Shown here: piece after piece, positions 2,251-54,051 of the stretch
How positions within the stretch are numbered: the stretch's first letter is position 1
Layout of the letters: each line of letters opens with the position of its first letter
Assembly (NCBI RefSeq): GCF_030684315.1
Contig: NC_081391.1
Location: 21,040,629-21,104,628, forward strand
Source: Stegostoma tigrinum
Lineage: Eukaryota
Direction: 5' to 3'
DNA: 64,000 bases
Made by a program: the position numbers and the translations under genes
The notes under the pieces: generated by a model
Database searches by the model: none
Told to the model about the DNA's origin: nothing
The model's input: the letters and a program-made list of their open reading frames with translations, nothing else

Positions 2251-2745
2251 CCCCGAGCCAATTTCCCACCTTTCTTTCCCAAATCCCAGCACAACAGGCT
2301 GAGAAACTGACACTCCCCTTCCTCAATGAGTCCCTTGTGCAGTTGATCACAACCACCTTAATTTAAAAACAAAACGAGCAATCTTTTTTCAAACCATATT
2401 TACTTCTTTTAAAAAAGAACCAAATAACACACGACCTGAGTGAGTGGTGCAGAAGGTTTGAGATGCCGAATGGCCTCCTGCTGTTCCAATCACAGAATAA
2501 CCATCCAGACCTGGCTCTCATCTCCACCTCTGATCAGCTCTGCTTAACACACCCTCCCCCTCTCTCTCATTGGTGCCTGTATGCATGGGTGGCTCCTGAT
2601 TGGCTAGCAGCAACTGTCAGTCATCATCAGTTCGGTCTCCCTCTGGGTGAGTGCCGGTTGTCTCAGGAGTAGAAACACAACAGCTTTGGGGATTGAGGCC
2701 TTAGTTCCAGAGTTGTCCTTGTGATTGTGAGCAGGAATAGTGAAG

Positions 2746-5138
<2,393 letters not shown>

Positions 5139-5216: not shown

Positions 5217-6244
5217 ATAGTATTCACCATGGAATTGTGTACAGTGTGTAATTTCCATAGCTTCTGGTTCTTGGAGCTTTTTGTGCTGTCATGTCTGATC
5301 ATCAATCCTTTGTTCTTTGTGACATCCTTTGATTCAATGCCTGCCCCAGTAACTTGCTCAGTGTTTGATTCTGCTGTGTCTGGGGATTGAGTGGGCAATC
5401 CTTTTATTGGAAATTCCATAACTGGTAAGGTTGTTGACAGATAAGTCAGCATTACTGACATCCACTCGCAGGGACAAGTTTGCAGGACCAGCTTCCAATC
5501 AATGCACTGACTGAAATCAGTCCTTTGCCTAAAGGGTAGGCACTGATCTAATGCACTGCCCTTGGTCATGTGTTTGGGTCTCTTTTTAAATAAGCAGATT
5601 CTGGAAACCAGGATCAAAACCTGCTGGGAAATCTCAGGTTTGGCAGCATTGGGAGGGAGAAGGGTTGAACAGAACCTGGCCATGAGACACGTGATCATCT
5701 CTTGTTTGATTTTGTTGCCTGACAGTGAGGTGTTTTCCAGCAATTTGTTCTAATGCCTTGGTGTTACTCATTTTCGTAAATCGTAAAATTCCTCCTCCCA
5801 AAGAGTAAGATAGAATGCTTTTCCGCAGTTTTTTTTCTTTGACATAAGCAATTGCTTATTGCACTCTTCCCTGAGCTAGGGAATTAGTTTCTTCAGTATC
5901 TCCTACTTACATGTAAGAGAAAGGAAACATCTACCTTGTCTTACAATGCTAAAGATGATGAGGAACTGCGTTGGGAATGAAGCAGTGCCCCCCCCTTGTT
6001 GCCTGTGTGATAATTTCTATTATTACCCTGCAACGAAGAGGTGACAAATACTGAGGATGCTTGGTGCAAAAGCAAGCTAAAATGCAACGAGCATGTGCAG
6101 AAATCAGCAGTTTCAATTTTCAAGCAGATCAGATCGCCTGCTGTCGACTGGCTGATCTGTGACTCCACACAGTGCACGCTGGGGGCCTAATCACTATCAA
6201 TCAGCCCTGAATTACAATGTGACTGGTTTGTGTAAGTGCTTTAA

Positions 6245-7115
6245 CAGGATCAGGCTATCACTGACGGGCAGCATTTATTATCCATCTCTGATTACCCACC
6301 CAGCCCATGAGTAATTCAAATTAAACCCCTTTGCTGTGGCCGTGGGGTTACACATAAGCCAGAGCAGGTAAGGATGGCAGTTTCTTACAAACAAGGACAT
6401 TAGTGAACTAGAAGAGGCTTGTTTGCACCATCACTTCTGGAATGAGAATGATGTGCAGGAAATTCAGTGATGTCAGACAGAATCAGGAAAACAGGTTGCA
6501 GTCTAACACTACAGAATGTTGACAGCCTCCAGCAAACGAGCAGCCACTTTAGTCAATCCTTCCACCACTGACATACGCAGAGACTGCAATATATACCATC
6601 TACCAAATGCTGTAGGAATCCACCAAAGCTCCTCAGACAACTTCTTAAAACCATAACTACTTTCCATCGGACAAGGGCCGCAGAAATGTGGGAACACCAT
6701 GCCTCTCCACGTTCTACACTAAGCCACTGCTCATCTGGCGTTGGAAACATAGCCCCACATTCCCTCCCTAACAGCAGTATGGCTTTGCCTACACCAAATG
6801 GGCAACAGTAACGCAAGAAGGAAAGTCACCACGTTCTCGAAACTAATGTTAGCCCTGATCTCTGAGGGGTTCAAATACCTCTGGATGGAGAGGTATTGGT
6901 GAAATTGTCAAGTTCCTGTTCAACCACAGCCGGAGTGCACAGTTCTGGCAGGTACGACCCCGACAATGGTCATGCACAGAATTTCTGGAAGTAACCTGGA
7001 CAGAGAGATGGTTAATTCATCATAATGGCTTGTCCAGTCCCTCTGTGTAGAAGGTTAAGGGATGGCTGTAACTGATATTGTTCAGAGGACTAACGGATTT
7101 GACAGGGTAGAGAGG
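6245..7115. mobile_element. cluster of old SINE and non-LTR retrotransposon fragments in the intergenic spacer
   Basis: CAGCATTTATT...GGTAAGGATGGCAG block (~6245-6425), a LINE-3'-like TCCACCACTGAC...TACCATCTAC block (~6510-6840) and decayed CR1 GFDRVDRE coding (~6850-7115). Homologues occur after every gene copy. Family assignment is by recall only. Confidence 0.45.
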
Positions 7116-9384
7116 AAAGAACCCATTTCTTCTCAATGATCATCTCGGACTGTGCGTAGAATGGGATGACAATCTTCACATGAGAACTACATCATCCAGG
7201 ATCATGTCAAAAACAGTTACTTTGTGGAAAGGACAACATTTGCACGCACAGATATTTACTGCACAAGGCTTGATGTTGCCAATCACTTTCCAATTTCAAG
7301 ACATAAAAAAAAAAGTGAGTAATGCATTTTTGTCCAAGAAACACAGAAAGACAAAACAGGCTCGATGTTACAAATCTGATGTGAGTACAGGAGCTCAGAG
7401 GCTTTCGGTTTCAAGTATGCGATTATCTGAAAGTGGTCAGGCAGGATGAAGCTGTTATTAATGGAGATTGAGCCACCTATGTGAACCTTGTGTTTTCAAA
7501 TTGAGGCATCGAGAATAAAAGCAATGAATTGATATTGCACCTGTACAAATCATTGGTTAGACCACATTTCCATTATGTACTCAGTTCTGGGCATGGCATT
7601 CAAGGCACGACATGAAAAACCTCAAAAGAGTTCAAAGGAGATTTATTAGAATGACCCCAGGAATGAGGAATTTTAGATACACAGAAAGATGAAGGAAAAT
7701 GGGCTAAATCTCCTTACAGGTGACCTTGTTGACATGATCAAAACTATGAACAATTTTGATAGAGTAAAAAGGATATTCTGATTTCAGCAGTTGACTTGTC
7801 AGTGACGAGGGGTCACAGTTTGTCAGTAGGGGAGATCAGAGTGAAATGGGAAGAAACCTCTTTGCTCAGAAAGTTGTTCGGATTTGGAATGTGCTGCCTG
7901 GAAGAGTGACGGAGGTCGATTCCATGGGTGGTTTCAAAACAAGAGTTGGATATGTCCTTGGAAGTGACGAATTTAGAGAGGGACAGAGATAGGGCTGGAA
8001 AGTGGGACTAATCAGGTAGCTCTTTCAGAAGCTAATACAGGAACGGTGGGCTGAACGGCCTCCTGTTGTGAAGAACGCTCTGAATTTCCACCCAGGAAAT
8101 TCTGAGAGTTTGGGGACGGGGTTTGAATTCCACCTGTACAAGGCACCTTTAATGTGGGAAAGCTGTTACACATCAGCAGAGACATGGTCCTTTACACAAG
8201 GTAGACCCAGTTCCACTGGCAAAGAAATGTTGACTGGGGATCCCCCCACTGCTGGCCAACACCCACTGTCACAGCCAACGATCGCACACACCTATCTTCC
8301 ACCTGGATGGCCGCTGGGGACTGGTTTTGCATTGCACCTTATCAGGAGCCTCCCCTCGATCGTACCGTCCAGGGTGGCCCTGCCAGGAGGTGAAATCCTC
8401 TTCAGGTATCCCTCTCAGAACCAACAGAACACTCGAGGCTTTCCATCACTGCGAGGTGACAATCCACAGGCAGGAGCTGGAGGCAGGGAGATTCTGCTCA
8501 GGTACAGACCCGCCACAGAATCGGAGAATTGTTATGGCACAGCAGGAGGCCATTCGGTTCTTTGTGCCTGTACCTGTTCTGGTTGTTTTCTAAATCTGCC
8601 TGTAGAGATGATTTAAGAGCTCTGGATCTGGTAGGAACTTGTACCAAGGCCTCCTGGTCCACAGCTAGGGACATTACCCCTAAACCACAAGACCCTAGCT
8701 GCGCTGGTTGCAGAAACATAGGATCATAGAAAAGAAATGTTGAGTCGGCCATTCATCCCTTCCAGCCGGCTCTGCCATTCCATGTGATTGTGGCTGATTC
8801 CATAACTCGGCACCATATTCTCACCCTCTCTGCAATCCCCTTTGATCCAGCCCTCAAAGCTCTCCCCAATTCCTGTTTTGGCTTCAATCGTTTTCTGTGG
8901 CAGAGAATTCCACAGGTTCCACCACTTCGCCCCCCGAGGTGAAGAGATTTCTCCTCACCTCAGTCCTAAACGTATCCTTAGATTGCAAACCCTGGTCCTG
9001 GCCTCCCCCATAATCAGGAACATCCTTCCTGTCTTTTCCACAGCAGACACTGTTATAATTTTTCTATGACCCAGAGACAATTTCCCACCCTTCTTTCCCA
9101 AATCCCAGCACAACAAGCTGAGAAACTGATGCCCCTCTTCCTCATTGAATCCCTCGTGCAGTTGCTCACAACCACCTTAATTTTTAAAAAATGTGTAACT
9201 TTTTTGAAACCAAATTGACTTCTTTTAGAAAAGAACCAAATGATCTATGACCTGATTGAGTGCTGCAGAAGGTTTGAGATGCCGAATGGCCTCCTGCTGT
9301 TCCAATCACAGAATAACCATCCAGACCTGGCTCTCATCTCCACCTCTGATCAGCTCTGCTTAACACACCCTCCCCCTCTCTCTC

Positions 9385-9494
9385 ATTGGTGCCTGTATGC
9401 AGGGGTGGTTCCTGATTGGCTAGCAGCAACTGTCAGTCATCATCAGTTCTGCCTCTCTCTGTGTGACTGCAGGATGGTCCCAGGACTATAAATA
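9385..9494 (+). promoter_or_regulatory. core promoter of copy B: two inverted CCAAT boxes and a TATA box
   Basis: ATTGG at 9385 and 9415 (30 bp apart) and TATAAATA at 9487-9494, starting 77 nt before the ATG. The same TATA occurs at 21409 (D), 28133 (E), 35351 (B'), 47272 (D') and 53978 (E'). Confidence 0.7.
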
Positions 9495-9563
9495 CAAGAG
9501 CCTGTGGGAGAGAGAGACTTAGTTCTAGAGTTTTCTTGCTGCTTGTGAGCAGGAATAGTGAAG

Positions 9564-11961
<2,398 letters not shown>

Positions 11962-14042
11962 GTGAGGTCAATAATGTGTCTGTTGTACATGGTGACATAA
12001 TGCTAGTAACTTGGTTGTGCTCTGAGCAAATTAAAATAGTGTTCACCATGGAACTGAGTACTTTGTATAATTTCACAGCTGCTTCTGGCTCTTGGTATTG
12101 CTGTTTGACACCTGATCATTAATTCCTTTTCTGTTCTGATTACCCTTTGATTCAATGCCTGCCCCAGTCGTCTGCTCCTTTTCTCTTGTTTGTAGGAATT
12201 AGGTGGGCAATCCTCGCAGTGGAAATTCCACAAGTGTTCAATTTGGGTTTTTGGCTAGTAAGCAGTGTTGTATTGACTTTTTTATTCCAAACCAGCTTCT
12301 AGTCAATATCTTCAGTGAAACCAGCCCCCTGTCTCAATGTTAGACACTGCCCTTGGCAATGTTCAAGTCTCTTTTGTAAATAAGCAGGGGCAGGAAATAG
12401 CAGGTTTGGGGAGCATCTGTGGAGAGAACTGTTCTCAGTCCCAGGACCCAAGATACAGTCACATCTCGTGACAGATGTTGCCAGACCTGTGAGGCTTTCC
12501 AGCAATTTTTTTGTCGCACTTCAAATCTAGCAATTTGAGCATACTTTCACTCTTTTGAACAGGAATATATAGTGGAACATCCAGCATCTAAGATGCACTG
12601 ATCTTTAGCACTTTAGATAAGCAATTGTTTCCAGAGCTGGGAAATAGTTTACTCTCTTTTGCTGCAGTGGGGGAAGGAGTAAGGGCACTGCCTGATTGTA
12701 GGAGAATGGCAAAATTTGTTTTCTCGTGTAGCAGTCTTTCTGCTTTTAGACAATGATCCTCATTATGTAATGCAGCAGTGCCCACCTTGGAGCCCCTGTG
12801 GTAGAACTTCTATCATTGCTCTGCAATGTAGAGATGCCAAAGGCTCAGGACACCTAGTAAAAATAAAGCTAGAATGCAAATGCCACTAGCAGAAAGCAGC
12901 AGTTTGTGTGCTTAGCAAGGAAATAAGCTCTCCTGATGTATGCTGACCGGCATGTACCTCCACCTGCAATGTGCTATGGCTGCCTAATTACTGGTGCTCA
13001 GGGGTGACAGTTTCCTTTATTTAAAGGATGAGGATGTCTCTGAGCTGACACCATTTATTTATCCATTGCTCATTGTCCCCAAGGCCAGGTCAGAGTCACA
13101 CACGTGGCTGTGGTTGCAGCGTCATACGCAGGCCAGGTAAGGATGGGTTTTTGACACTGAATATAATGCTCCTCATCAGCTTCTTAATTCTAGAACTCCA
13201 GAGAGTTGTCGCACAGAATTAGGAGATCATTCCACCACTCCAGAAACTTGATGGCCTCCAGCAGCCACTAGATGCATTCTTTGCACCACTGACACACACG
13301 GAGTACACTGTGTACCGCCTCCCAAAAGCTGGAGAAATCCACCAAAGCTCCTGAGAATACTTTCCAAAGCCCTAATTACTTGCCATGGGAGAAAGGCATC
13401 TGATACAGGGGAAAACCACCCCCTCTAAGTTCTCCATCAAGCTACCTGCCATCCTGAGTTGGAAACACAACACCCCATTCTCCAGTGTTGGTGGATCAGA
13501 ATCCTGGAATTCCCTCACTAGGAACATTGTGGATCTGACTACAGCAATTAAAGAAGGAAAGCCACCCCATTCTCTCATGGTGGGTGTGATCTCCGAGCGG
13601 GTCAAATACCTCTGGCTGGGCCGCCTTTTGTGAAATTGTCAAGTTCTAGCTCAACTCCATCTCGAGTGCATGGTTCTAGTAGGTTCAATCCAAAGATGCT
13701 TATGCACAGAATTTCTGGAATGAACCTGGGCAGAAAGTTAATTGGCTACGATGATAATCGTTTTCCCAAGTCCCTCGATGTAGAAGTGGACGGGATGTCT
13801 GTGCTTGAAATTTACAAGTGGATTCATGGATTTGACAGGGTAGATAGAGAGATCCTGCTTCTTTTCAATTCACATCCAGGACTGAGAGGGGGGAATTTGA
13901 TGACATTCCTAGCAGTAGAAGTAAATCATCCATGATAAAGCAAAAAACAGCTGCTTTTTGGAAAGGATAATATGTGAATGAGCAGTTAGATATTTATTCG
14001 GTAAGATGTTGATGTTGCCAATCACTTTCCCATTGGAACATA

Positions 14043-15218
14043 TGACCAAACAGGTAGATGAGAGTAAACCGGTTGATGTGGTGTATATGCATTTCGGCAA
14101 GGCGTTCGATTAGGCTCCCCACAGTAGGCTATTGTACAAAATGCGGAGGAATGGGATTGTGGGAGATATAGCAGTTTGGATCAGAAATTGGCTTGCTGAA
14201 AGAAGACAGGGTGGTGGTTGATGGGAAATGTTCATCCTGGAGACCGGTTACTCGCGGTGTACCGCAAGGGTCCGTGTTGGGTCCACTGCTGTTTGTCATT
14301 TTTATAAACGTAGAAGGATGGGTTAGTAAATTTGCAGATGACACTAAGGTCGGTGGAGATGTGGGTAGTGACGAAGAATGTTGTAGGTTACAGAGAGACG
14401 TGGATAAGTTGCAGAGCTGGGCTGAGAGGTGGCAAATGGAGGTTAATGCCGACAAGTGTGAGGTGATGCACTTTGGTAGGAGGAACCGGAAGGCAAAGTA
14501 CTGTAAGATTCTTGGTAGTGTAGATGAGCAGCGAGATCTCGGTGACCATGTACACAGATCCTTGAAAGTTGCCACCCAGGTTGACAGGGTTGTTAAGAAG
14601 GCATACAGTGTTTTAGCTTTTATGAATACAGGGATCGTGTTCCGGAACCAAGAGGTTATGCTGCAGCTGTACAAAACTCTTGTGCGGCCGCACTTGTAGC
14701 ATTGCGTACAGTTCTGGTCACCGCATTATAAGAAGGATGTGGAAGTTTTGGAAAGGGTGCAGAGGAGGTTTACTGGGATGTTGCCTGGTATGGAGGGAAA
14801 GTCTTACGAGCAAAGGCTGAGGGACTTGAGGCTGTTTTCGTTAGAGAAAAGAAGGTTGAGAGGTGACTTAATTGAGACATCTAAGATAATCAAAGGGTTA
14901 GACAGGTTGGATAGGGAGAGCCTTTTTCCCAAGACGGAGACAGCGAGCACGAGGGGCATAGCTTTAAATTGAGGGGTGAAAGATATACGACAGATGTCAG
15001 AGGTAGTTTCTTTACTCAGAGAATAGCAAGGGTGTGGAACGTTTTGCCTGCAACGGTAGGAGATTCACCAACGTTAAGTACGTTTAAGTTGTCATTGGAC
15101 AAGCATATGGACGTACATGGAATAGTGTAGGTTAGATGAGCTTCAGATCGGTATGACAGGTCGGCACAACGTCAAGGGCCGAAGGGCCTGTACTGTGCTG
15201 TCATGTTCTCTGTTCTAT
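14043..15218 (+). mobile_element. 5'-truncated CR1 LINE (RT fragment) with AACATA TSD
   Basis: GVPQGSVLGPLLF and KFADDTK RT motifs, internal stops and frameshifts, TGTTCT tail. AACATA at 14037-14042 and 15219-15224. Confidence 0.92.
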
Positions 15219-15870: not shown

Positions 15871-17078
15871 TTCTCTTACTTTGACCGGGATGATGTTGCC
15901 CTGCGTCACTTTGCTGAGTTCTTCAAGGAGCAGTCCCATGAGGAGCGGGAACACACTGAGAACCTGATGGCTTTCCAGAATAAACGTGGGGGCCGAATCC
16001 TCCTGCAGGACATCAAGGTTAGATTTTGAAGCCTTCTGTTTGCAGCTTTTCGTGAAATACCACTCAATTGTGGCTCGCTCAATCTGTTTAGCTTCAGGAC
16101 TGAGCAAATACTGTATGAATGGGGGGGTTGCTCACCACAATACGATTCCCTTCACTAAAAGGAAACACTTTTGCACGTGATTGAACAATAGTTGGCAATT
16201 GTGATAATCCAGTATTCTGGATGGTGAGCACATATCGGTGTCTAACGCTGCTTTGGACAACATGAGGTGTCAAAAGGGAAAACAGAAATCTTTCAGGTGC
16301 GGAAAGCATCAGTATGAAGCCTTTATACATCTCAAGATGTTTCTGATGCCTTGATATCACTCTGATCACAGCATAGCAGGATCTGTTTAGAAATGTCCCC
16401 TTCAAGAACAGTACCAAATACAGCAGGTGTTTCACCAAGGTCAAGTTGGCCTGTAGTACCTCCCCTACAATGATGCGGGATAACTAACTGATCAGATGTA
16501 GACTAATGATACAACTGCCTGCTGAGCTGTGCTTTCTGTTCCTGCTTCCCTCCCTCCAGAAGCCAGAGCAGGATGAGTGGGGCAATGGTCTGGAGGCAAT
16601 GCAGAGAGCTCTGCAGATGGAGAAGGTTGTGAACCAGAGTCTGCTGGATCTGCACAAACTGGCCTCTGGCAACACAGACCCTCATGTGAGTGTGGTGTAT
16701 TTAAATCTGGGTTTCTGAATAAAAACAGTGATCAGACACTTGGTCCTTTTTGTTAGCCACAAGATCTCATTTGACATTGTGGAGGGTTTTCTTGGGTTAT
16801 ACCAACATCCTCCTGTTTCTAAAACTGAGCACTTTCGAAAGTATTTGGCAATCTCCATGACATCACTTCACTGCTCGGTCTCCCAAGCTGCATTTGGTCA
16901 GATTTAACCAGTTCCCCTCTTTGTCTTCCAGCTGTGTGACTTCCTGGAGAGGCACTACCTGGATGAGCAAATGAAGATGATCAAGAAGCTGGGAGATCAC
17001 ATCACCAACCTGAAGAGACTGGGAGCCCCTGACAATGGCATGGGAGAGTACCTGTTTGACAGGCTCACACTCAGCTGA
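15871..17078 (+). pseudogene. ferritin pseudogene C (no promoter or exon 1; exon-2 acceptor AG>GG)
   Basis: Exons 2-4 at 15871..16017, 16560..16685 and 16932..17078. The acceptor reads CCACGG. No exon 1 lies between gene B and this locus. Confidence 0.88.
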
Positions 17079-20000: not shown

Positions 20001-21485
20001 CTCTGAATTTCCACTCAGGAAATTCTGAGAGTTTGGGGACGGGGTTTGAATTCCACCTGTAGAAGGCACCTTTAATGTGGGAAAGCTGTAACACGCCAGC
20101 AGAGACATGGTCCTTTACACAAGGTAGACCCAGTTCCACTGGCAAAGAAATGTTGACTGGGGATCCCCCCACTGCTGACCAACACCCACTGTCACAGCCA
20201 ACGATCGCACACACCTATCTTCCACCTGGATGGCCGCTGGGGACTGGTTTTGCATTGCACTTTATCAGGACCCTCCCCTCGATCGTACCATCCTGGGTGG
20301 CGCTGCCAGGAGGTGAAATCTTCTTCAGGTATCACTCTCAGAACCAACAGAACACTCGAGGCTCTCCATCACTGCGAGGTGACAATCCACAGGCATGAGC
20401 TGGAGGCAGGGAGATTCTGCTCAGGTACAGACCCACCACAGAATCGGAGAATTGTTATGGCACAGCAGGAGGCCATTCGGTCCTTTGTGCCTGTACCTGT
20501 TCTGGTTGTTTTCTAAATCTGCCTGTAGAGATGATTTAAGATCTCTGGATCTGGTAGGAACTTGTACCAAGGCCTCCTGGTCCACAGCTAGGGACATGAC
20601 CCCTTAACCACAAGACCCTGGCTGCGCTAGTTGCACAAACGTGGAATCATAGAAAATAAATGTTGAGTCGGCCATTCATCCCTTCCAGCCTGCTCTGCCA
20701 TTCCATGTGATTGTGGCTGATTCCATAACTCAGCACCATATTCTCACCCTCTCTGCATTCCCTTTTGATCCAGCCCTCAAAGCTCTCCCCAATTCCTGTT
20801 TTGGCTTCAATCCTTTTCTGTGGCAGAGAATTCCACAGGATCCACCACCCCGCCCCCCGAGGTGAAGAGATTTCTCCTCACCTCAGTTCTAAATGTATCC
20901 TTAGACTGCAAACCCTGGTCCTGAACTCCCCCATAATCAGGAACATCCTTCCTGTCTTTTCCACAGCTGACACTGTTACAATTTTCTATGACCCAGAGAC
21001 AATTTCCCAACTTTCTTTCCCAAATCCCAGCATAACAAGCTGAGAAACTGATGCCCCTCTTCATCATTGAATCCCTCATGCAGTTGCTCACAACCACCTT
21101 AATTAAAAAAAATGTGAAAACTTTTCTCAAACCAAATTGACTTATTTTAAAAAAGAACCAAATAACACACGACCTGAGTGAGTGGTGCAGAAGGTTTGAG
21201 ATGCCGAATGGCCTCCTGCTGTTCCAATCACAGAATAACCATCCAGACCTGGCTCTCATCTCCACCTCTGATCAGCTCTGCTTAACACACCCACCCCCTC
21301 TCTCTCATTGGTGCCTGTATGCAGGGGTGGTTCCTGATTGGCCGGCAGCAACTGTCAGTCATCATCAGTTCTGCCTCTCTCTGTGTGACTGCAGGATGGT
21401 CCCAGGACTATAAATACAAGAGCCTGTGGGAGAGAGAGACTTAGTTCTAGAGTTTTCTTGGTGCTTGTGAGCAGGAATAGTGAAG

Positions 21486-23761
21486 ATGGTTTCCCAAGTG
21501 TGTCAGAACTACCACAAGGACTGTGAGGATGCTGTTAACAAGCAGATCAACCTGGAGCTCTATTCCTCCTATGTTTACCTCTCCATGGTGAGCTTTGTGG
21601 AATTGAAGCCTGTGCTATGATAGTGTTGACCTGTTTGGTTTTTACGCTGAGTTAATGAATTAGCTGTAACATGTATTATTTTCTGTGGCCCTTCCCCTGT
21701 TGCAATCTAGTGCCGGTCTTATCACTGACTCTCTGTTCAAAACTTGACCACTGTCTTCATGTCCAACTGGCTCCTGGATGTGGATGCCCAGCTTGCTGTC
21801 TCTGGACAATGTAACCCTTGGTGATTTTTTTCATCTAACTCTGGAGGGATGATCTGGTCTTGGTCAATAATTAATTTTTGTAAAACTTTGGTTGTATTCC
21901 TTTTCTCAACAAAAGCTTTTCCTGACACAAATATACTCCTTTTTTAAAACCTTGCCCTATTCACCGGACTGTCTTGTGCTCAAGATGTCAAGTTCCCTGA
22001 ACTAAAAGAACAGCTGCTGCTAGACATTAAACACTAACAAAAATAGCTAGAAAAGCTCTACAGAGCTGGAAGAAATCCAAGCTCTGGGTCCATTGACCCT
22101 TTCTCAGAAGTGGCTTTGAGCTATGCAATGTGAGGAAAGGGGCACATTTTCAGACTATGTATGTGTTTTTTTTTCTTTCTCTCTAACAAAGCAGTTAAAA
22201 TTCTGTGGAGTGGGTGGTAGGACACTGCGGTTATTCAGGTGGGTGATAGTGATAATGAGACTGCTGACTGAGCTTTCTGGTTGTGTTAATGAACACATGT
22301 CCCTTCATTCAGTTGGACAGGGGCCGAACTGGTCTCCACCTCCTGAACAATAGTGTTTCTAACCTGCAGAGCAGGGATGTCTAATGGCTCTAGACAGCTC
22401 TCCCCTTCATCATCCATGGAAGGTGACTTCCTGCTTTGTCTGTTTTTTTAACCACTTAAATGTGGAATCCAGATGGTGCCCAGGTTAGTTCCAGAGTGAG
22501 GAGTGTCATTCATGAATTTCAGACAGTTTCCTTTTAGCCTCTCTCTCCCCACAGTTCTCTTACTTTGACCGGGATGATGTTGCCCTGCATCACTTTGCTG
22601 AGTTCTTCAAGGAGCAGTCCCATGAGGAACGGGAACACGCTGAGAAACTGATGGCATTCCAGAATAAACGTGGAGGTCGAGTCATCCTGCAGGACATCAA
22701 GGTTAGATTCTGAAGCCTTCTGTTTGCAGCTTTTTGTGAGCAGCTACAATCGACTGGTATCTCCATCTATTTAGCTTTAGCCTTGAACAAATACTGTGTG
22801 AAGGGGAGGGTGTTCACCAAAATAGGATTCCTTTAGGTTGAAAGGAAATACTCTGCACTTATGAGGGCAATTGAGAGGAACCAGAATAGTGAGTAGATAT
22901 CAATGTGAATGACTCTCCTTCAGACAGAATGAGGTAACAAAAGCTAAGACAGGAAATTGTTGCACTGTGGAAAGTAGCAGTGTCCAGCCTTTCTGAATCT
23001 GGAAGATGTTTCTAACACCACAATAGTGAAGCCAGGAACTACTTCCATTGGTACCTATTCTCTACATGTGAATTCTGAGAATCTACATTAACAGTAGAAT
23101 GTGTTTAGAAAATTTGTTATTCCCTCAGTACAAAATCTAGTTGTTGTCTTCAAATTCAAGTTGGTTTGCAGTACCTCCCCTACAATGATGAGGGATAACT
23201 AACTGATCAGATGTAGACTAATGATACAACTGCCTGCTGAACTGTGCTTTCTGTTCCTGCTTCCCTCCCTCCAGAAGCCAGAGCAGGATGAGTGGGGCAG
23301 TGGTCTGGAGGCAATGCAGAGAGCTCTGCAGATGGAGAAGGATGTGAACCAGAGTCTGCTGGATCTGCACAAACTCGCCTCTGGCCACACTGACCCTCAT
23401 GTGAGTTTGTAAACTTTCTTCTTGGAAGAAAGTGGTGTGTTTGTGCACTCTCTGGGTAAAAATCCAATTACCTTCTCCCAGCCTCCTGCAGGCTGTTAAA
23501 ACAAACTTACAAATGCATCACCTCAGTGGACCTCCACCTGGTTGTGATGGTCACATCTGTCATGGGGGTCACTTTCAGACACTTTTGATCCTCTGGATTA
23601 ATTTTCTCTTCCAGCTGTGTGACTTCCTGGAGAGGCAATACTTGGATGAGCAAGTGAAGATGATCAAGAAGCTGGGAGATCACATCACCAACCTGAAGAG
23701 ACTGGGAGCCCCTGACAATGGCATGGGAGAGTACCTGTTTGACAGGCTCACACTCGGCTGA
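21486..23761 (+). CDS. ferritin subunit (M / heavy-chain-B-like), copy D, 173 aa, intact
   Basis: join(21486..21587,22555..22701,23275..23400,23615..23761). TATA at 21409. Ends [10 protein letters not shown]...FDRLTLG. Confidence 0.94.
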
Positions 23762-26999: not shown

Positions 27000-28206
27000 A
27001 ACATAAAAGATTAATGCATTTTGGTTGAGAAACATAGAAAGACAAAACAGGCTCGATGTTACAAATCTGAGGTGAGTACGGGAGCAGAGGGACTTTGGGT
27101 TTCAAGTATGTGATTATCTGAAAGTGGCCGAGCGGGACTAACCTGCTATGAAGAAGGCTTTTGTGAAATGTGTGTTTTCAAATAGATGCGGAGAGTATAA
27201 AAGCGAGGAATAGATGTTACACCTCCACAAATCATGGGTTAGACCACATTTGCAGTACTGTGTTCAGTTCTGGGCATGGTATTTAAGGAAGGACATTAAA
27301 GCCCTCGACAGAGTTCAAAGGGCATTTACGAGAATGACACCAGGAATGAGGGATTTTAGATACAAGGAAAGATGAAGGAAATTGGGATAAATCTCCTTGA
27401 AGCATAGTTGATTAAGAGGTGTCCCCGTTGAAGTGACAAAAATAATGAACATTCTGTCAGGGTAAAGGAGGATATCCTGTTTTCACCAGTTGATACGGCA
27501 GTGATGAGGGGTCACAATTTGTCAGTAAGGGAGCTCTGAGATGAGGACAAACCTCTCTATTCAGAAGGTTGTTAGGATTTGGAATCTGATGCCTGGGAGA
27601 GTGGCGGAGGTAGATCCCATAGGTGGCTTCAAAACAAGAGCTGGATATATACTTGGGAGTGACGAATATAGAGGGTATAGGGCTGGAGAGGGCGACTAGG
27701 TGGGTAGCTCTTTCGGAAGCCGATACGGACATGATGGGCTGAATGGCCTCTGTCGTTAAAAATCCTCTGAATGTCCACCCAGGAACTTTTGTAAATTTTG
27801 GGTTTGTATTCCTCTCAGTCTTAAATGTCCAACCCAGTCCTCTTACATCAGGATACCCTGATCCTGGACTCCCCCATCATTGGGAACATCCTTCCTGTCC
27901 TTGCCCCGTCTGATCCTGTCACAGTTTTCTATGACCCAGAGCCAATTTGCCACCTTTCTGTCTCATATCCCAGCACAACAGGCTGAGAAACCGACACCTC
28001 TTCTTCATTGACTTCCTCGTGCAGTTTGTCACAACCGCCTTAATTTAGAAACAAAATGTTAAAGCTTTTTTCAATTGCCAGTCATCATCAGCTCTGCCCT
28101 TCTCTGTGTCAGTGCGGGATGGCCCCCAGGAGTATAAATACAGAGCTTGTCGGGGAGCAACTCAGTTCTAGGGTGGTCTTGGTTTTAATGAACAAGGCTA
28201 GTGATG

Positions 28207-30616
28207 ATGGCCTCCCAAGTATGTCAGAACTACCACAAGGACTGTGAGGATGCTGTTAACAAACAGATCAACCTGGAGCTCTATTCCTCCTATGTTTACC
28301 TCTCCATGGTGAGACTTGTGATCTTGAATGGTCTATTTCAGTGTTAGGGCTGTGATATGATTGTACTGAGCCTTTAAGTGGCTTCTTGCTCAATGATTTA
28401 GTACTACCATATATCTTGTCTGTTGTCCTTCCTGGAATGAATCCTGTGAGTGCTCTTAATGCTAATTCTGTAGCAATTTTAAGCTTGTCTTGTGTTGGAG
28501 CTGGCTCTTGTCTAGGAGTCCCCAGGATGTTGTAATTCTGGGCAGAGCACATTTTTGGTGCTGAGGGATGGCCTGGTTCTGCTTCTTAATTCAACTCCTC
28601 CTTCCATGTTGATATCAATGGCCCATTTATATTTGAAATCATTTACATCCTTGTGGAAGCTTGCATCAGTCCAAATCTAACTTTTTATATCTTGTCCTTT
28701 TAATGAAGCCTTTTTTTTAATAAACATCCTAACTGTGATTAACTACTGGAAATAAAAGACTAAAATGAGCTGCTGGAAAAGCTTAGTGGGTCTGGTAGGA
28801 TCTGTGGTGAGAAATCAGTTCCTGTTTTTGGTCCGGTGACCTTTCCTTCACGGTTTTTAGTTGCTACTTATGAGGAGCAGACTTTTTCCACTCCCAAGAT
28901 GGATTATCTGGAACAAAAATCAGTCACTGTCTCTTGTGCAGATGAGGTGTTAGGACAGTGGGGCTAAATCAGATGAGTGATGTTGGTAATGTGAGGAGCT
29001 CAGATTTCAGCTTCTCTTGGTCAACATGCACATGTCCCTTCATTCAGTTGGACAATGCCCTGATTGGCTTCCAGCACTGGGTAATAGTGTTTCTGACCTG
29101 CAGTGCAGGGATGTCTAATGCCTGTTGCCAGCTGTGACCGTCACCGTGCACTGTCTCACCAAGTCACCGACCAGCGGTTGTAGCGGGTGCTACTTAATCT
29201 TTATTTCTAGATGTTTGAACAAATGTCTGTCTAGTTTAGTTTATGGATGACCATAAATGTAAATACCTGTCTTCTTACTGTCCATCTAACTTCCATTTCG
29301 TGAGCAAAACCAAGCTGAATTGAGTGAAATTTACTTCCCATTTTGTCTGTTTGCAGTTCTCTCTCTTTGACCAGGATGATGTTGCCCTCCATCACTTTGC
29401 TGAGTTCTTCAAGGAGCAGTCCCATGAGGAGCGGGAACACGCTGAGAAACTGATGGCATTCCAGAATAAACGTGGAGGCTGAGTCCTCCTGCAGGACATC
29501 AAGGTTGGATTCTGAGAATGTCTGTCTGTTTGCAGCTTTTTGAGCAGCGACAATCGAATGGTATCTCCATCTATTTAGCTTCAGGATTGATCAAATACTA
29601 TGTCAAGGGCAAGTTGTTCCCCGAAACAGGATTTGTTTAGGGAAAAGGGAAATACTTTGCATTTGTGACTCAATAGCAGAAGGCAATTCAGATGATCCAG
29701 GCTACTGGATGGTGAGCACATGTCCCTGTATGTGACTCTATATGGACAAGGTGAGGTAACAAAAGGTAAGGCTGAGAACTTGCAGCTACAAAAAGCAGCA
29801 GCATCCAACCTCACTACATCTAGAAGAGGTTTGTAATGCCTTGGGACCATTCTGGTCACTACATCAAACAGTAAAGCAAGGGATTACTTCCATTGCGACT
29901 GATTCTAGATACGACTTCTTTCAGAATTCACAGTAACAGTGAGATATGTTAACATTTCTTTATTCTCAGGCCAGCATAAAATCTAGAGGGTTTTTGTATC
30001 CAAGTAAAATTTTTTGTCTGAATGTAACCCCTGGAAATGATGAGGGATAACTAACTGATCAGATGTAGACTAATGATACAACTGCCTGCTGAGCTGTGCT
30101 TTCTGTTCCTGCTTCCCTCCCTTCAGAAGCCAGAGCAGGATGAGTGCGGCAATGGTCTGGAGGTGATGCAGAGAGCTCTGCAGATGGAGAAGGATGTGAA
30201 CCAGAGTCTGCTGGATCTGCACAAACTTGCCTCTGACCACATAGACCCTCATGTGAGGTTTTATCCCTTTCCTGGTAGAAAGTGATCTGTTTGTGTACTT
30301 CCAGGGTGGGGAATCCAATTATTTTTCTACCTGCCTCCTGCAGGATGTTTAAACAAAACCTTGTGAAGGCATCACTTGCATGCCCCTCCCCCATAGGGAG
30401 GTGATGGTCACTTCTGTCATGGGAGGTCACTGACATTTTTTGATCCTTGTTGGATTAATTTTGTCTTCCAGCTGTGATTTCATGGAGAGGCACTACTTGG
30501 ATAAGCAAGTGAAGATGATCAAGAAGCTGGGAGATCACATCACCAACCTGAAGAGACTGGGAGCCCCTGACAATGGCATGGGAGACTACATGTTTGACAG
30601 GCTGCCACTCCATTGA
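28207..30616 (+). pseudogene. ferritin pseudogene E
   Basis: Exons 28207..28308, 29357..29503, 30127..30252 and 30472..30616. CGA>TGA stop at 29480-29482, a 2-bp deletion at the start of exon 4 (CTG TGA) and W>C in DEW. Confidence 0.92.
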
Positions 30617-32382: not shown

Positions 32383-33310
32383 AAGCATGTGGATGAGGGA
32401 AGGGCAGTTGACGTGGTGTAATTGGACTTCAGTAAAGCCATTGATAAGGTTTCACATGGTAGGCTATTGGAGAAAATACAGAGGCAGAGAATTGAGGGAG
32501 ATTTAGCAGTTTGGATTAGAAACTGGCTTTCTGTAAGAAGGCAACGAGTGGTGGTTGATGGAAAATATCCAGCCTGGAGTCAGGTCACTCGTAGTGTGCC
32601 TCAAGGATCTAATTTAGGACCACTGCTGTTTGTCATTTTTATAAATGTCTTGGACGCAGGCATAGGTGGATGGGTTAGTAAGTTTGCAGATGACACTAAA
32701 GTCGGTGGAGTGGTGGACGGTGTGGAAGAATGTTGCACGTTGCAGGGAGACTTGGATAAACTGCAGAATTGGGCTGAAAGGTGGCAAATGGAGTTCAATG
32801 CAGATAAATGTTCTGGTCACCCCATTACAGGAAGGATGTGGAAGCATTGGGAAAGGTGCAGAGGAGATTTACCAGGATGTTGCCTGGTCTGGAGCGCAGG
32901 CCCTATGAAGAAACGCTGAGGGACTTGGATCTGTTCTCATTGGAGAGAAGTAGGCTAAGAGGGGATTTAATAGAGACATACAAGATGATCAGAGGATTAG
33001 ATAGGGTGGACAGTGAGAGTCTTTTTCCGAGGATGATGACTTCAACTTGTACAAGGGGGCATAGCTACAAATTGCGGGGTGATACATTTAAGACATTTGT
33101 CAGAGGCAGGTTCTTTGCTCAGAGAGTGGTAAGGGCGTGGAAAGCCCTGCCTGCCAATGTAGTTAACTCAGCCACGTTAGGGGCATTTAAACATTTCTTG
33201 GATAAGCATATGGATGGTGACGTGATTGTGTAGGAGGTGGGGCTTGGATTAGCTCACAGGTCGGCGCAACATCGAGGGCCGAAGGGCCCGTTCTGCGCTG
33301 TATTGTTCTA
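32383..33310 (+). mobile_element. 5'-truncated CR1 LINE with internal 262-bp deletion and TGAACC TSD
   Basis: DFSKAIDKV, VPQGSNLGPLLF and KFADDTK motifs. TSD at 32377-32382 and 33311-33316. Deletion junction at 32810. Confidence 0.92.
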
Positions 33311-35427
33311 TGAACCTTGTGTTTTCAAATTGAGGCATCGAGTATAAAAGCAAGGAATTGATGATACCCCTCTACAACTCATTGGTTAGACCACATTTGC
33401 AGTGATGTGCTCAGTTCTGGGCGTGGCTTTTAAGGAAGGGCATGCAAGCCCTGGACAGAGTTCAAAGGTGATTTATAATAATGACACCTGGAATGGGGAA
33501 TTTCAGACACACGGAAAGATTAAAGAAATAGCGCTTATTCTCCTTGGAGCAAGGAGCACTTGTTGAAGTGATCAAAATTATCACCAATTCTGTCAGGGTA
33601 AAGGGGGATATTCTGTTTTCACCAGTGGATACGTTAGTGACGAGGGGTCACAATTTGTCAGTGAGGGAGCTCACAGTGAGAGGAGGAGAAACCTCTTCAC
33701 TCAGAAAGTTGGTAGGGTTTGGTATGCGTAGCTGACAGGAGTGATGGACGCAGATTCCGTAGGTGGCTTTAGAAAAGCAGCTGTATACATATATGGAAGT
33801 GGCAAATTTAGAGGGATACAGACATAGGGCTGGAGAGTGGGGCTGCGTGTGGAATGCTTTCAGAAACTGAATCAGGCACGATGGGCCAAATGGCCTCCTA
33901 TCATTAAAAATCCTCTGCATGTTCCCCCAGGAAATTCTCAGAGTTTGGAGAGGGGCTTTGTACTCCTCTCAGTGGGCACCTGTACAAGGCACCTTTAATG
34001 TGGGAAAGCTGTTACACATCAGCAGAGACATGGTCCTTTACACAAGGTAGACCCAGTTCCACTGGCAAAGAAATGTTGACTGGGGATCCCCCCACTGCTG
34101 ACCTTCACCCACCGTCACAGCCAACGATAGCACACGCCTATCTTCCACCTGGATGGCCGTTGGGAACTTGTTTTGCATTGCACTTTACCAGGACCCTCCC
34201 CTCGATCGTACCGTCCTGGGTGGCCCTGCCAGGAGGTGAAATCCTCTTCAGGTATCACTCTCAGAACAAACAGAACACTCGAGGCTCTCCATCACTGCGA
34301 GGTGACAATCCACAGGCAGGAGCTGGAGGCAGGGAGATGCTGCTCAGGTACAGACCCATCACAGAATCGGAGAATTGTTGTGGCACAGCAGGCGGCCATT
34401 CGGTCCTTTGTGCCTGCACCTGTTCTGGTTGTTTTCTAATTCTGCCTGTAAAGATGTTACAAAATCTCTGGATCTGGTATGGACTTGGACCAAGGCTTCC
34501 TGGTCCACAGCTAGGGACATTACCCCTGCATCACAATACCCTGGCTGCACTGGTTGTACAAACTTAGAATCATCGAAAAAAAATTGTTGGATTCGGCCAT
34601 TCAGCCCCCTCCAGACTGCTCTGCCATTCCATGTGATTGTGGCTGATTCCATAACTCAGTCCCATCTTCCCACTCTCTCTCCATACTCTTTGATCCCTGC
34701 AGCCCTCAAAGCTACACCCAACTGCTCCTGGAAAACATTCAAAGTTTTGGCCTCAAATGTTTTCTGTGGCACAGAATTCCACAGGCCCCCCACTCTCTCG
34801 GTGAAGAGATTTCTCCTCATCTCAGGCCTAAATGTGTACTTAGGCTGTGACCCCTGGTCCTGAACTTTTCCATCATCAGGAACATCCTTCCTGTCTTTTC
34901 CACAGCTGACACTGTTACAATTTTCAATGACCCCGAGCCAATTTCCCATCTTTCTTTCCCAAATCCCAGCACAACAGGCTGAGAAACTGACACTCCCCTT
35001 CCTCAATGAGTCCCTTGTGCAGTTGATCACAACCACCATAATTTAAAAACAAAACGAGCAATCTTTTCTCAAACCATATTTACTTCTTTCAGAAAAGAAC
35101 CAAATGACCTATGACCTGATTGAGTGGTGCAGAAGGTTTGAGATGCCGAATGGCCTCCTGCTGTTCCAATCACAGAATAACCATCCAGACCTGGCTCTCA
35201 TCTCCACCTCTGATCAGCTCTGCTTAACACACCCTCCCCCTCTCTCTCATTGGTGCCTCTATGCAGGGGTGGTTCCTGATTGGCTAGCAGCAACTGTCAG
35301 TCATCATCAGTTCTGCCTCTCTCTGTGTGACTGCAGGATGGTCCCAGGACTATAAATACAAGAGCCTGTGGGAGAGAGAGACTTAGTTCTAGAGTTTTCT
35401 TGGTGCTTGTGAGCAGGAATAGTGAAG

Positions 35428-37821
<2,394 letters not shown>

Positions 37822-41731: not shown

Positions 41732-42941
<1,210 letters not shown>

Positions 42942-45900: not shown

Positions 45901-47348
45901 GACGGGGTTTGAATTCCACCTGTAGAAGGCACCTTTAATGTGGGAAAGCTGTTACACGCCAGCAGAGACATGGTCCTTTACACAAGGTAGACCCAGTTCC
46001 ACTGGCAAAGAAATGTTGACTGGGGATCCCCCCACTGCTGACCAACACCCACTGTCACAGCCAACGATCGCACACACCTATCTTCCACCTGGATGGCCGC
46101 TGGGGACTGGTTTTGCATTGCACTTTATCAGGACCCTCCCCTCGATCGTACCATCCTGGGTGGCGCTGCCAGGAGGTGAAATCTTCTTCAGGTATCACTC
46201 TGAGAACCAACAGAACACTTGAGGCTCTCCATCACTGCGAGGTGACAATCCACAGGCAGGAGCTGGAGGCAGGGAGATTCTGCTCAGGTACAGACCCACC
46301 ACAGAATCGGAGAATTGTTATGGCACAGCAGGAGGCCATTCGGTCCTTTGTGCCTGTACCTGTTCTGGTTGTTTTCTAAATCTGCCTGTAGAGATGATTT
46401 AAGATCTCTGGATCTGGTAGGAACTTGTACCAAGGCCTCCTGGTCCACAGCTAGGGACATGACCCCTTAACCACAAGACCCTGGCTGCGCTAGTTGCACA
46501 AACGTGGAATCATAGAAAATAAATGTTGAGTCGGCCATTCATCCCTTCCAGCCTGCTCTGCCATTCCATGTGATTGTGGCTGATTCCATAACTCAGCACC
46601 ATATTCTCACCCTCTCTGCATTCCCTTTTGATCCAGCCCTCAAAGCTCTCCCCAATTCCTGTTTTGGCTTCAATCCTTTTCTGTGGCAGAGAATTCCACA
46701 GGATCCACCACCCAGCCCCCCGAGGTGAAGAGATTTCTCCTCACCTCAGTTCTAAATGTATCCTTAGACTGCAAACCCTGGTCCTGAACTCCCCCATAAT
46801 CAGGAACATCCTTCCTGTCTTTTCCACAGCTGACACTGTTACAATTTTCTATGACCCAGAGACAATTTCCCAACTTTCTTTCCCAAATCCCAGCATAACA
46901 AGCTGAGAAACTGATGCCCCTCTTCCTCATTGAATCCCTCATGCAGTTGCTCACAACCACCTTAATTAAAAAAAATGTGAAAACTTTTCTCAAACCAAAT
47001 TGACTTATTTTAAAAAAGAACCAAATAACACACGACCTGAGTGAGTGGTGCAGAAGGTTTGAGATGCCGAATGGCCTCCTGCTGTTCCAATCACAGAATA
47101 ACCATCCAGACCTGGCTCTCATCTCCACCTCTGATCAGCTCTGCTTAACACACCCACCCCCTCTCTCTCATTGGTGCCTGTATGCAGGGGTGGTTCCTGA
47201 TTGGCTAGCAGCAACTGTCAGTCATCATCAGTTCTGCCTCTCTCTGTGTGACTGCAGGATGGTCCCAGGACTATAAATACAAGAGCCTGTGGGAGAGAGA
47301 GACTTAGTTCAAGAGTTTTCTTGGTGTTTGTGAGCAGGAATAGTGAAG

Positions 47349-49626
47349 ATGGTTTCCCAAGTGTGTCAGAACTACCACAAGGACTGTGAGGATGCTGTTA
47401 ACAAGCAGATCAACCTGGAGCTCTATTCCTCCTATGTTTACCTCTCCATGGTGAGCTTTGTGGAATTGAAGCCTGTGCTATGATAGTGTTGACCTGTTTG
47501 GTTTTTATGCTGGGTTAATGAATTAGCTGTAACATGTATTATTTTCTGTGGCCCTTCCCCTGTTGCAATCTAGTGCAGGTCTTATCACTGACTCTCTGTT
47601 CAAAACCTGACCATTGTCTTCATGTCCAACTGGCTCCTGGATGTGGATGCCCAGCTTGCTGTCTCTGGACAATGTAACCCTTGGTGATTTTTTTCATCTA
47701 ACTCTGAAGGGATGATCTGGTCTTGGTCAATAATTAATTTTTGTAAAACTTTGGTTGTATTCCTTTTCTCAACAAAAGCTTTTCCTGACACAAATATACT
47801 CCTTTTTTTCAAACCTTGCCCTATTCACCGGACTGTCTTGTGCTCAAGATGTCAAGTTCCCTGAACTAAAAGAACAGCTGCTGCTAGACATTAAACACTA
47901 ACAAAAAGAGCTAGAAAAGCTCTACAGAGCTGGAAGAAATCCAAGCTCTGGGTCCATTGACCCTTTCTCAGAAGTGGCTTTGAGCTATGCAATGTGAGGA
48001 AAGGGGCACATTTTCAGACTATGTATGTGTTTTTTTTTTCTTTCTCTCTAACAAAGCAGTTAAAATTCTGTGGAGTGGGTGGTAGGACACTGCGGTTATT
48101 CAGGTGGGTGATAGTGATAATGAGACTGCTGACTGAGCTTTCTGGTTGTGTTAATGAACACATGTCCCTTCATTCAGTTGGACAGGGGCCGAACTGGTCT
48201 CCACCTCCTGAACAATAGTGTTTCTAACCTGCAGAGCAGGGATGTCTAATGGCTCTAGACAGCTCTCCCCTTCATCATCCATGGAAGGTGACTTCCTGCT
48301 TTGTCTGTTTTTTTAACCACTTAAATGTGGAATCCAGATGGTGCCCAGGTTAGTTCCAGAGTGAGGAGTGTCATTCATGAATTTCAGACAGTTTCCTTTT
48401 AGCCTCTCTCTTCCCACAGTTCTCTTACTTTGACCGGGATGATGTTGCCCTGCATCACTTTGCTGAGTTCTTCAAGGAGCAGTCCCATGAGGAACGGGAA
48501 CACGCTGAGAAACTGATGGCATTCCAGAATAAACGTGGAGTTCGAGTCATCCTGCAGGACATCAAGGTTAGATTCTGAAGCCTTCTGTTTGCAGCTTTTT
48601 GTGAGCAGCTACAATCGACTGGTATCTCCATCTATTTAGCTTTAGCCTTGAACAAATACTGTGTGAAGGGGAGGGTGTTCACCAAAATAGGATTCCTTTA
48701 GGTTGAAAGGAAATACTCTGCACTTATGAGGGCAATTGAGAGGAACCAGAATAGTGAGTAGATATCAATGTGAATGACTCTCCTTCAGACAGAATGAGGT
48801 AACAAAAGCTAAGACAGGAAATTGTTGCACTGTGGAAAGTAGCAGTGTCCAGCCTTTCTGAATCTGGAAGATGTTTCTAACACCACAATAGTGAAGCCAG
48901 GAACTACTTCCATTGGTACCTATTCTCTACATGTGAATTCTGAGAATCTACATTAACAGTAGAATGTGTTTAGAAAATTTGTTATTCCCTCAGTACAAAA
49001 TCTAGTTGTTGTCTTCAAATTAAAGTTGGTTTGCAGTACCTCCCCTACAATGATGAGGGATAACTAACTGATCAGATGTAGACTAATGATACAACTGCCT
49101 GCTGAACTGTGCTTTCTGTTCCTGCTTCCCTCCCTCCAGAAGCCAGAGCAGGATGAGTGGGGCAGTGGTCTGGAGGCAATGCAGAGAGCTCTGCAGATGG
49201 AGAAGGATGTGAACCAGAGTCTGCTGGATCTGCACAAACTCGCCTCTGGCCACACTGACCCTCATGTGAGTTTGTAAACTTTCTTCTTGGAAGAAAGTGG
49301 TGTGTTTGTGCACTCTCTGGGTAAAAATCCAATTACCTTCTCCCAGCCTCCTGCAGGCTGTTAAAACAAACTTACAAATGCATCACCTCAGTGGACCTCC
49401 ACCTGGTTGTGATGGTCACATCTGTCATGGGGGTCACTTTCAGACACTTTTGATCCTCTGGATTAATTTTCTCTTCCAGCTGTGTGACTTGCTGGAGAGG
49501 CAATACTTGGATGAGCAAGTGAAGATGATCAAGAAGCTGGGAGATCACATCACCAACCTGAAGAGACTGGGAGCCCCTGACAATGGCATGGGAGAGTACC
49601 TGTTTGACAGGCTCACACTCGGCTGA
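47349..49626 (+). CDS. ferritin subunit, copy D', 173 aa, frame intact with two extra missense changes
   Basis: join(47349..47450,48420..48566,49140..49265,49480..49626). RGG>RGV and CDF>CDL relative to D. TATA at 47272. Confidence 0.9.
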
Positions 49627-52844: not shown

Positions 52845-54051
52845 AACATAAAAGATTAATGCATTTTGGTTGAGAAACATAGAAAGACAAAACAGGCTCG
52901 ATGTTACAAATCTGAGGTGAGTACGGGAGCAGAGGGACTTTGGGTTTCAAGTATGTGATTATCTGAAAGTGGCCGAGCGGGACTAACCTGCTGTGAAGAA
53001 GGCTTTTGTGAAATGTGTGTTTTCAAATAGATGCGGAGAGTATAAAAGCGAGGAATAGATGTTACACCTCCACAAATCATGGGTTAGACCACATTTGCAG
53101 TACTGTGTTCAGTTCTGGGCATGGTATTTAAGGAAGGACATTAAAGCCCTCGACAGAGTTCAAAGGGCATTTACGAGAATGACACCAGGAATGAGGGATT
53201 TTAGATACAAGGAAAGATGAAGGAAATTGGGATAAATCTCCTTGAAGCATAGTTGATTAAGAGGTGTCCCCGTTGAAGTGACAAAAATAATGAACATTCT
53301 GGCAGGGTAAAGGAGGATATCCTGTTTTCACCAGTTGATACGGCAGTGATGAGGGGTCACAATTTGTCAGTAAGGGAGCTCTGAGATGAGGACAAACCTC
53401 TCTATTCAGAAGGTTGTTAGGATTTGGAATCTGATGCCTGGGAGAGTGGCGGAGGTAGATCCCATAGGTGGCTTCAAAACAAGAGCTGGATATATACTTG
53501 GGAGTGACGAATATAGAGGGTATAGGGCTGGAGAGGGGGACTAGGTGGGTAGCTCTTTCGGAAGCCGATACGGACATGATGGGCTGAATGGCCTCTGTCG
53601 TTAAAAATCCTCTGAATGTCCACCCAGGAACTTTTGTAAATTTTGGGTTTGTATTCCTATCAGTCTTAAATGTCCAACCCAGTCCTCTTACATCAGGATA
53701 CCCTGATCCTGGACTCCCCCATCATTGGGAACATCCTTCCTGTCCTTGCCCCGTCTGATCCTGTCACAGTTTTCTATGACCCAGAGCCAATTTGCCACCT
53801 TTCTGTCTCATATCCCAGCACAACAGGCTGAGAAACTGACACCTCTTCTTCATTGACTTCCTCGTGCAGTTTGTCACAACCACCTTAATTTAGAAACAAA
53901 ATGTTAAAGCTTTTTTCAATTGCCAGTCATCATCAGTTCTGCCCTTCTCTGTGTCAGTGCGGGATGGCCCCCAGGAGTATAAATACAGAGCTTGTCGGGG
54001 AGCAACTCAGTTCTAGGGTGGTCTTGGTTTTAATGAACAAGGCTAGTGATG

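Follow-up and report, generated by a model that had tools for sequence, protein, structure and literature searches.

The 64-kb window, by which we mean the whole stretch of DNA analyzed, contains ten tandem ferritin copies, all + strand and named in sequence A B C D E B' C' D' E' A' (self-comparison and exon mapping). They are of the carpet-shark type: the closest proteins, which match copy B at 92–94%, come from Chiloscyllium, Rhincodon, and Stegostoma. Five copies are intact, four are broken, and one is cut by the end of the window. In A, B, D, B', and D', GT-AG splicing yields open 173-aa frames, and the four exons and three introns of the array genes reproduce the vertebrate ferritin gene layout. 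The features are as follows, with copy B given in full:

2670–5138, + strand: copy A, open 173-aa ORF, TATA box decayed
9385–9446, + strand: proximal promoter of copy B, with inverted CCAAT boxes at 9385 and 9415, an E-box (CANNTG) at 9427–9432, and the 13-nt CAGTCATCATCAG at 9434–9446
9487–9494, + strand: TATA box of copy B, TATAAATA
9519–9525, + strand: initiator-like TTAGTTC of copy B, predicted +1 at 9521
9521–9563, + strand: predicted 5' UTR of copy B, 43 nt, without an IRE
9564–9665, + strand: coding part of exon 1 of copy B, from exon mapping; Pfam Ferritin falls below its curated cut-off for this piece alone
10783–10929, + strand: exon 2 of copy B, from exon mapping; Pfam PF00210, E = 5e-11
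11376–11426, + strand: snoRNA-like C/D-box block closing intron 2 of copy B on its 3' side, with box C (ATGATGA) and box D (CTGA)
11461–11586, + strand: exon 3 of copy B, from exon mapping
11815–11961, + strand: exon 4 of copy B, ending with the stop; the spliced ORF has 173 aa
12030–12035, + strand: polyadenylation-type signal ATTAAA of copy B; such a signal lies 69–73 nt past the stop position in nine of nine exon-4 copies
15871–17078, + strand: copy C, a pseudogene without exon 1 and promoter, exon-2 acceptor GG, box C altered
21409–23761, + strand: copy D, intact
28133–30616, + strand: copy E, exon 2 interrupted by a stop and exon 4 frameshifted; promoter and splice sites retained, C/D block intact (30037–30092)
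35351–37821, + strand: copy B', intact; the gene is B-type and its upstream DNA A-type
41732–42941, + strand: copy C', like copy C
47272–49626, + strand: copy D', intact
53978–56461, + strand: copy E', like copy E
62080–63455, + strand: copy A', exons 1 and 2 open, TATA box decayed, continuing beyond the window end

Self-comparison revealed a 25.8-kb duplication (7482–32147 versus 33311–57986) at 98% identity, and this duplication is recent. Copy B' is chimeric (window 33000–35428): from −2400 to −300 it is 95–100% A-like and thereafter 98–100% B-like, which is a trace of unequal crossing-over. A reverse-transcriptase (LINE) remnant, presumably of the CR1 type, lies upstream of copy C (14172–15130; Pfam RVT_1, E = 2e-13), at the place where the promoter and exon 1 of that copy are missing; we looked for an exon 1 remnant upstream of copy C and found none. 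Tandem Repeats Finder gave no match in the array, whose repeat unit is longer than the program's period. In six of eight pairs of copies there are at least as many amino-acid changes as silent ones, and constraint may therefore be relaxed. In distant pairs among A, B, D, and E, fourfold sites diverge less than introns (about 5–12% versus 14–23%, on small counts), which suggests gene conversion centered on exons. The intact copies stop at 173 aa (11959–11961 in B), whereas their relatives usually have 176 aa, three residues more. The 105 nt that follow the stop (11962–12066 in B) retain 81–100% identity per 15-nt bin among A, B, D, and E, and 3' UTR control is a possible role for them.

An earlier sequence-only reading of this DNA had placed one and the same TATA box about 70 nt upstream of the ATG in every copy that has exon 1. 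The distance was borne out: the interval from TATAAATA to the ATG (9564–9566) is 69 nt in copy B and 66–69 nt across all eight exon-1 copies. The sameness of the box holds for six of the eight (B, D, E, B', D', and E'), whereas the aligned place in A and A' reads TAGAAACA, a decayed form. Downstream of it, TYAGTTC is found in seven of eight copies (TTTGTTC in A'), and we take it to be an initiator on the basis of the Inr consensus. Relative to this motif the first T of the TATA box lies at −31 to −34, the spacer between the two varying among copies, and the initiator A is separated from the ATG by 43 nt in all eight copies, in a gap-free alignment. From these sequence features we infer that transcripts start near 9521. 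Further upstream, the E-box and an invariant 13-nt CAGTCATCATCAG occur in eight of eight exon-1 copies, and both inverted CCAAT boxes occur in six. E-boxes and CCAAT boxes are also known from oocyte genes; the E-box together with CAGTCATCATCAG (9427–9446 and its equivalents) is a candidate tissue-specific element. Copies E and E' have an extra ATG within the 43-nt leader (28188 and 54033), out of frame with the coding start. A bacterial promoter scan found nothing and is irrelevant to a eukaryote.

One protein model from the basking shark extends across the same TATA region, 78 nt ahead of its Met, and matches the B leader (4 of 300 null draws scored as high), which hints at an old origin of the short leader. 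When the N-terminal extensions of eight relatives were compared with the leader in an ungapped test, this was the one clear match; two more reached 6 and 9 of 300 at mismatched distances, and the sawfish extension was not significant (26 of 300). The extensions gave no tblastn match at E 0.05, and a search for further proteins like the basking-shark extension returned only itself.

Vertebrate H, M, and L ferritin mRNAs are translationally repressed by IRP1/2 through a cap-proximal IRE. The earlier reading held that no IRE hairpin lies between the TATA box and the ATG in any exon-1 copy, and it called for a scan by SIREs or Rfam; scans of the window DNA with Rfam and with the SIREs rules agree with it. 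With Rfam, the 64 kb gave no IRE match at the gathering score, and at E ≤ 10 there was none over the whole window, over 6000–13000, or in the 55-nt leader of D. Our SIREs-rule scan, written from the published rules, required a CAGWGH loop, a 5-bp stem, and a C bulge; SIREs also allows 16 non-canonical loops according to its available description, and the scan consisted of canonical and loop-agnostic passes. Across the entire window it returned 0 canonical IREs for the + strand, the mean in 20 random 64-kb sequences being 1.3, and it recovered 200 of 200 planted IREs, all synthetic rather than natural. A looser first scan of the + strand gave six strict-loop matches, one of them with a lower stem (20100, intergenic), and that one does not fold as an IRE.

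Within the leaders themselves, copy B has no CAGTG, and the loop 5-mer CAGAG occurs in A and A' (2708 and 62118) without an IRE stem. The loop-agnostic pass found a bulged stem in seven of eight leaders, with the canonical loop in none and no such stem common to all copy types. The canonical 5' UTR IRE that marks an IRE/IRP-regulated ferritin mRNA is thus missing from the array. Absence of a motif from 43–70 nt is at chance level, and its sole informative value comes from the fact that an IRE is the norm in vertebrate ferritin mRNAs. The intergenic DNA able to hide an upstream exon lies within the window for seven copies and contains no canonical IRE, and the lack of any such element on the + strand speaks against an upstream exon within the array that would bear an IRE. 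We consider it very likely that the array mRNA carries no IRE. The proposal that the array has escaped IRP control is well supported at the sequence level, and on firmer grounds than the earlier reading gave, by the initiator-like motif, the 43-nt UTR of all eight copies and the intergenic DNA free of canonical IREs, and stands as a prediction; the accompanying idea that output is set by copy number needs care, as four of the ten copies are broken and two more have a decayed TATA box.

The encoded subunit has all seven ferroxidase ligands (E24, Y31, E58, E59, H62, E104, and Q138, a list that we take to be established; numbering from alignment to solved M-ferritin structures) in each of the five complete copies. 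Together with the Pfam ferritin domain, they place it by sequence among the ferroxidase-active (H/M-type) animal ferritins. In alignment its N-terminus coincides with residue 1 of M ferritin, so there is no signal peptide; the predicted subunit is cytosolic and ferroxidase-intact.

We placed the window protein in a quick tree of 35 chosen rows, 34 of them from 171 fetched proteins and the related ones not independent. It fell within a clade (SH-aLRT 94) whose members are sharks, rays, and a chimaera, apart from the H (98), low-copy shark (99), and tetrapod M (99) clades; its separation from tetrapod M is to be read with deep branches open and ray-finned M represented by one row. Forcing the window protein to group with the H rows was rejected (p-AU 4e-39), as was grouping with the low-copy shark clade (6e-5), for groups named after an earlier tree had been seen. 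Because the window protein is set apart from both, sharks have other, separate ferritins in which an IRE could reside. A second shark clade of multi-copy type joins a lizard L chain (91), apart from the window clade, and has K59 in five of five rows, as expected of a non-catalytic, L-like subunit. Relatives of the array form clusters of 127, 138, and 180 members at 90% identity, with several species pooled, and span shallow and deep species; the array thus belongs to a multi-copy, tandem chondrichthyan clade, as the shark ferritin expansion does. Turtle M-type ferritins (P0110, P0114, P0151, and P0163) also sit in clusters of 21–50 members, reflecting either amplification or many species.

Binding of human FTH1 to NCOA4 needs R23, for which the available text describes R23A as the only mutation tested (PMC4592949). 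The corresponding residue in the window is Lys19 (codon 19 of B, 9618–9620), and Arg occupies this position in 0 of 16 array rows, versus 15 of 15 among the remaining vertebrate rows, not counting one with a gap at that site. Lys is also found in two of three invertebrate outgroups. The substitution is a conservative R to K and may reflect one or two events, and for these reasons the change at the NCOA4 site is only a lead. We rejected the array gene as an FTH1 (H) orthologue, since it lies outside the H clade, the constraint test rejects the grouping, and there is no Arg at the NCOA4 site.

The closest published parallel is an ancient expansion described in a Greenland shark preprint, which in its available part reports 155 FTL and 179 FTH1 copies, an expansion that the white shark has too, and ovary-specific expression of the largest ferritin cluster (bioRxiv 10.1101/2024.09.09.611499). 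Like the window, that expansion consists of big tandem clusters of full-length ferritin genes of two types, and the two very probably represent the same family. The section of the preprint that deals with ferritin labels the copies FTH1 and FTL, whereas the window gene is rejected as an H orthologue, and that section is silent on IREs, promoters, NCOA4, and introns. Among solved structures, the best matches to the array are amphibian and teleost M (H') ferritins, which share its length class, ferroxidase ligands, and four exons; position 141 is Met in the array and Asp in the 1mfr-type chain. The salmon H and M isoforms, including M1–M3, are all described as IRE-bearing in the available text (PMC4117605).

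IRE-less ferritins are known from several other lineages. Snail yolk ferritin (Biomphalaria and Lymnaea) provisions eggs and is described in the available text as having no 5' IRE (PMC10799875). The array resembles it in this absence; the snail protein, however, is secreted, with a signal peptide and a 42-aa insertion, whereas the shark subunit has neither and is tandemly multiplied. We rejected membership in the molluscan yolk ferritins on the absence of these two features, although the proteins may function alike. An IRE-less Schistosoma ferritin is stated in a title cited in PMC1488847. Mammalian FTMT likewise has no IRE in the available account (PMC8393899), and by that account it is a ferroxidase-active, tissue-restricted vertebrate ferritin, as the array is predicted to be. 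FTMT is intronless and has a mitochondrial leader, whereas the shark genes have four exons and encode a predicted cytosolic subunit. To our knowledge, mouse Fthl17 has neither an IRE nor ferroxidase activity. It forms a seven-gene cluster with early-embryo expression, according to the available text (PMC2887969), and thus resembles the array in clustering but differs in being X-linked and imprinted. The hadal snailfish has 14 mostly tandem fthl27 copies (PMC10746142), but these are recent and broadly expressed, and an IRE goes unmentioned in the available text. The accessible portions of PMC7551829 and PMC11719527 offered no precedent for the array.

Under IRP control, abundant ferritin lowers free iron, and further ferritin translation is then repressed. 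A cell that has to store iron for future use benefits from losing the IRE. The window genes form part of the ancient ferritin array of cartilaginous fishes, and we think it reasonably probable that they encode an iron-stocking ferritin of the ovary that IRP feedback no longer holds back. IRP1/2 would be unable to bind the array transcripts, and heavy ferritin synthesis would stay on even as free iron falls. Expression would take place in the ovary, as in another shark; the source for this is two preprint sentences on a different shark order, and orthology of the window to the cluster concerned is assumed, which weakens the ovarian reading. As further steps, the array subunit might co-assemble with products of the L-like array that is the second one in sharks, and its degradation might be slowed because the arginine that contacts NCOA4 has been lost. 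Iron would thereby be held for the egg and embryo, with ordinary iron-sensing left to separate low-copy paralogues.

The IRE-less array might instead supply a transcriptionally driven antioxidant or stress ferritin to somatic tissues, as in the hadal snailfish, whose mostly tandem fthl27 copies are reported to be high in most tissues, with lower ROS in cells (PMC10746142). An intact ferroxidase center would suit such a role, but the sole shark expression report, in the part available, is ovary-specific, and the array is found in shallow and deep species alike; we regard this explanation as unlikely. Quite unlikely, in our judgment, is that the array is a family under birth-and-death turnover, mostly dispensable, in which the IRE was lost through weak expression or function and not to raise output. 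The broken copies and decayed TATA boxes, the many amino-acid changes between copies, the recent duplication, and the chimeric copy all fit that history. Against it, the clade persists across the span from a chimaera to the carpet sharks and still has most of the catalytic ligands, the UTR length is fixed at 43 nt, and in the available Greenland shark text more than 85% of copies are reported as full length and the cluster as expressed.

IRP control could also have been kept, either via a distant non-coding exon bearing an IRE or through non-canonical binding of IRP to a leader hairpin that is possibly a collapsed IRE. A CT-rich, acceptor-like stretch ending in CAG (9472–9474) in copy B would serve the first, but the acceptor-like AG is absent from A, A', E, and E' and no canonical IRE is found on the + strand of the window. 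As to the second, a weak 8-bp hairpin can form in the leader at 9533–9555 (z = −1.6 in copy B); it is cap-proximal, shows one two-sided change in E, and has what we take to be a likeness to the base of fish IREs, and the non-canonical loops that SIREs permits, by its available description, leave room for such an element. The pairing is nevertheless no better than in shuffles (128 of 500 as high), and there is no Rfam IRE match even on 55 nt. We rejected the hairpin as a conserved structure or IRE remnant on its weak z-scores, the pair counts within the range of shuffles, and the lack of an Rfam IRE match, and we judge retained IRP control to be highly unlikely.

The 3' end of intron 2 carries a second conserved element. 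The last 90 nt of the intron are conserved to the same degree as exons, and the C/D-box-like block within them is found in nine copies (for example, at 4526–4581, 30037–30092, and 55882–55937). Its boxes follow the C, D', C', D order of a box C/D snoRNA: C, D', and D occur in order in five of nine copies, C and D in seven of nine, and a C'-like ATGATA is seen; B and B' have lost the D' box through a 5-nt deletion. Taken alone, the C...D pattern is not rarer than expected by chance (10 versus 12), and the five matches to the full pattern are copies of one element. Between E and A, B, or D, the block differs at 2–6% of positions and the intron body at 20–23%, with 4–5 of about 40 fourfold sites differing. 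We found no terminal stem closing boxes C and D, of the kind expected in a snoRNA, and Rfam gave only sub-threshold archaeal C/D matches to the block. On these sequence features the block may be a snoRNA, a splicing element, or a product of gene conversion. That the unit is kept partly as the host of an intronic C/D snoRNA, which would account for maintenance of short-UTR and protein-dead copies (E and E'), is hardly credible: 53 of 57 columns at the intron-2 end are invariant (at most 41 in any other intron window), the conservation edge is sharp at box C, the block of E diverges far less than its intron body, and E and E' have intact boxes while C and C', which lack a promoter, have a changed box C, but no Rfam family reaches the gathering score and the best matches are archaeal C/D models, box D lies just 34 nt from the acceptor with the terminal stem absent, branch-point-like motifs lie inside the block, gene conversion spreading from exon 3 could explain the conservation, and the intact ORFs are left unexplained.

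A broader version of the iron-stocking reading, to which we give a small chance, would make the arrays a cartilaginous-fish counterpart of yolk ferritin more than 250 million years old, in which catalytic and L-like arrays escape both IRP repression and NCOA4-driven degradation and lock iron into the egg, while the catalytic genes host an uncatalogued intronic C/D-box RNA multiplied with them.

The array had been put forward as the best candidate for a new system in this DNA, which overstates the case, because the shark expansion is already in print and IRE-less ferritins (FTMT and snail yolk ferritin) and tandem amplification in fish are known. Already known, from the available parts of those sources, are an ancient, ovary-expressed shark ferritin expansion and IRE-less, egg-linked ferritins. 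What is new here is the loss of the IRE in the array, the finding that none of the 16 array proteins examined has Arg at the NCOA4 site, and the conserved intron-2 block. In the literature searched we found no report of an intron-2 C/D-like block in shark ferritin genes and no statement that the shark array lacks IREs; most subscription journals fell outside that search, as did a survey of IRE evolution, which may already note IRE-less fish ferritins.

These results bear on how shark ferritin copy numbers are read. Because the window gene is not an H orthologue, counts of shark "FTH1" copies should not be equated with extra iron-responsive H ferritin, for example in arguments about longevity. 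Sharks have very large, long-developing eggs, and no route of iron provisioning was evident in the literature searched. An IRE-free and possibly NCOA4-resistant ferritin array offers a concrete, testable mechanism of egg iron supply, and it would represent convergence, within vertebrates, with the yolk ferritins of snails and flukes.
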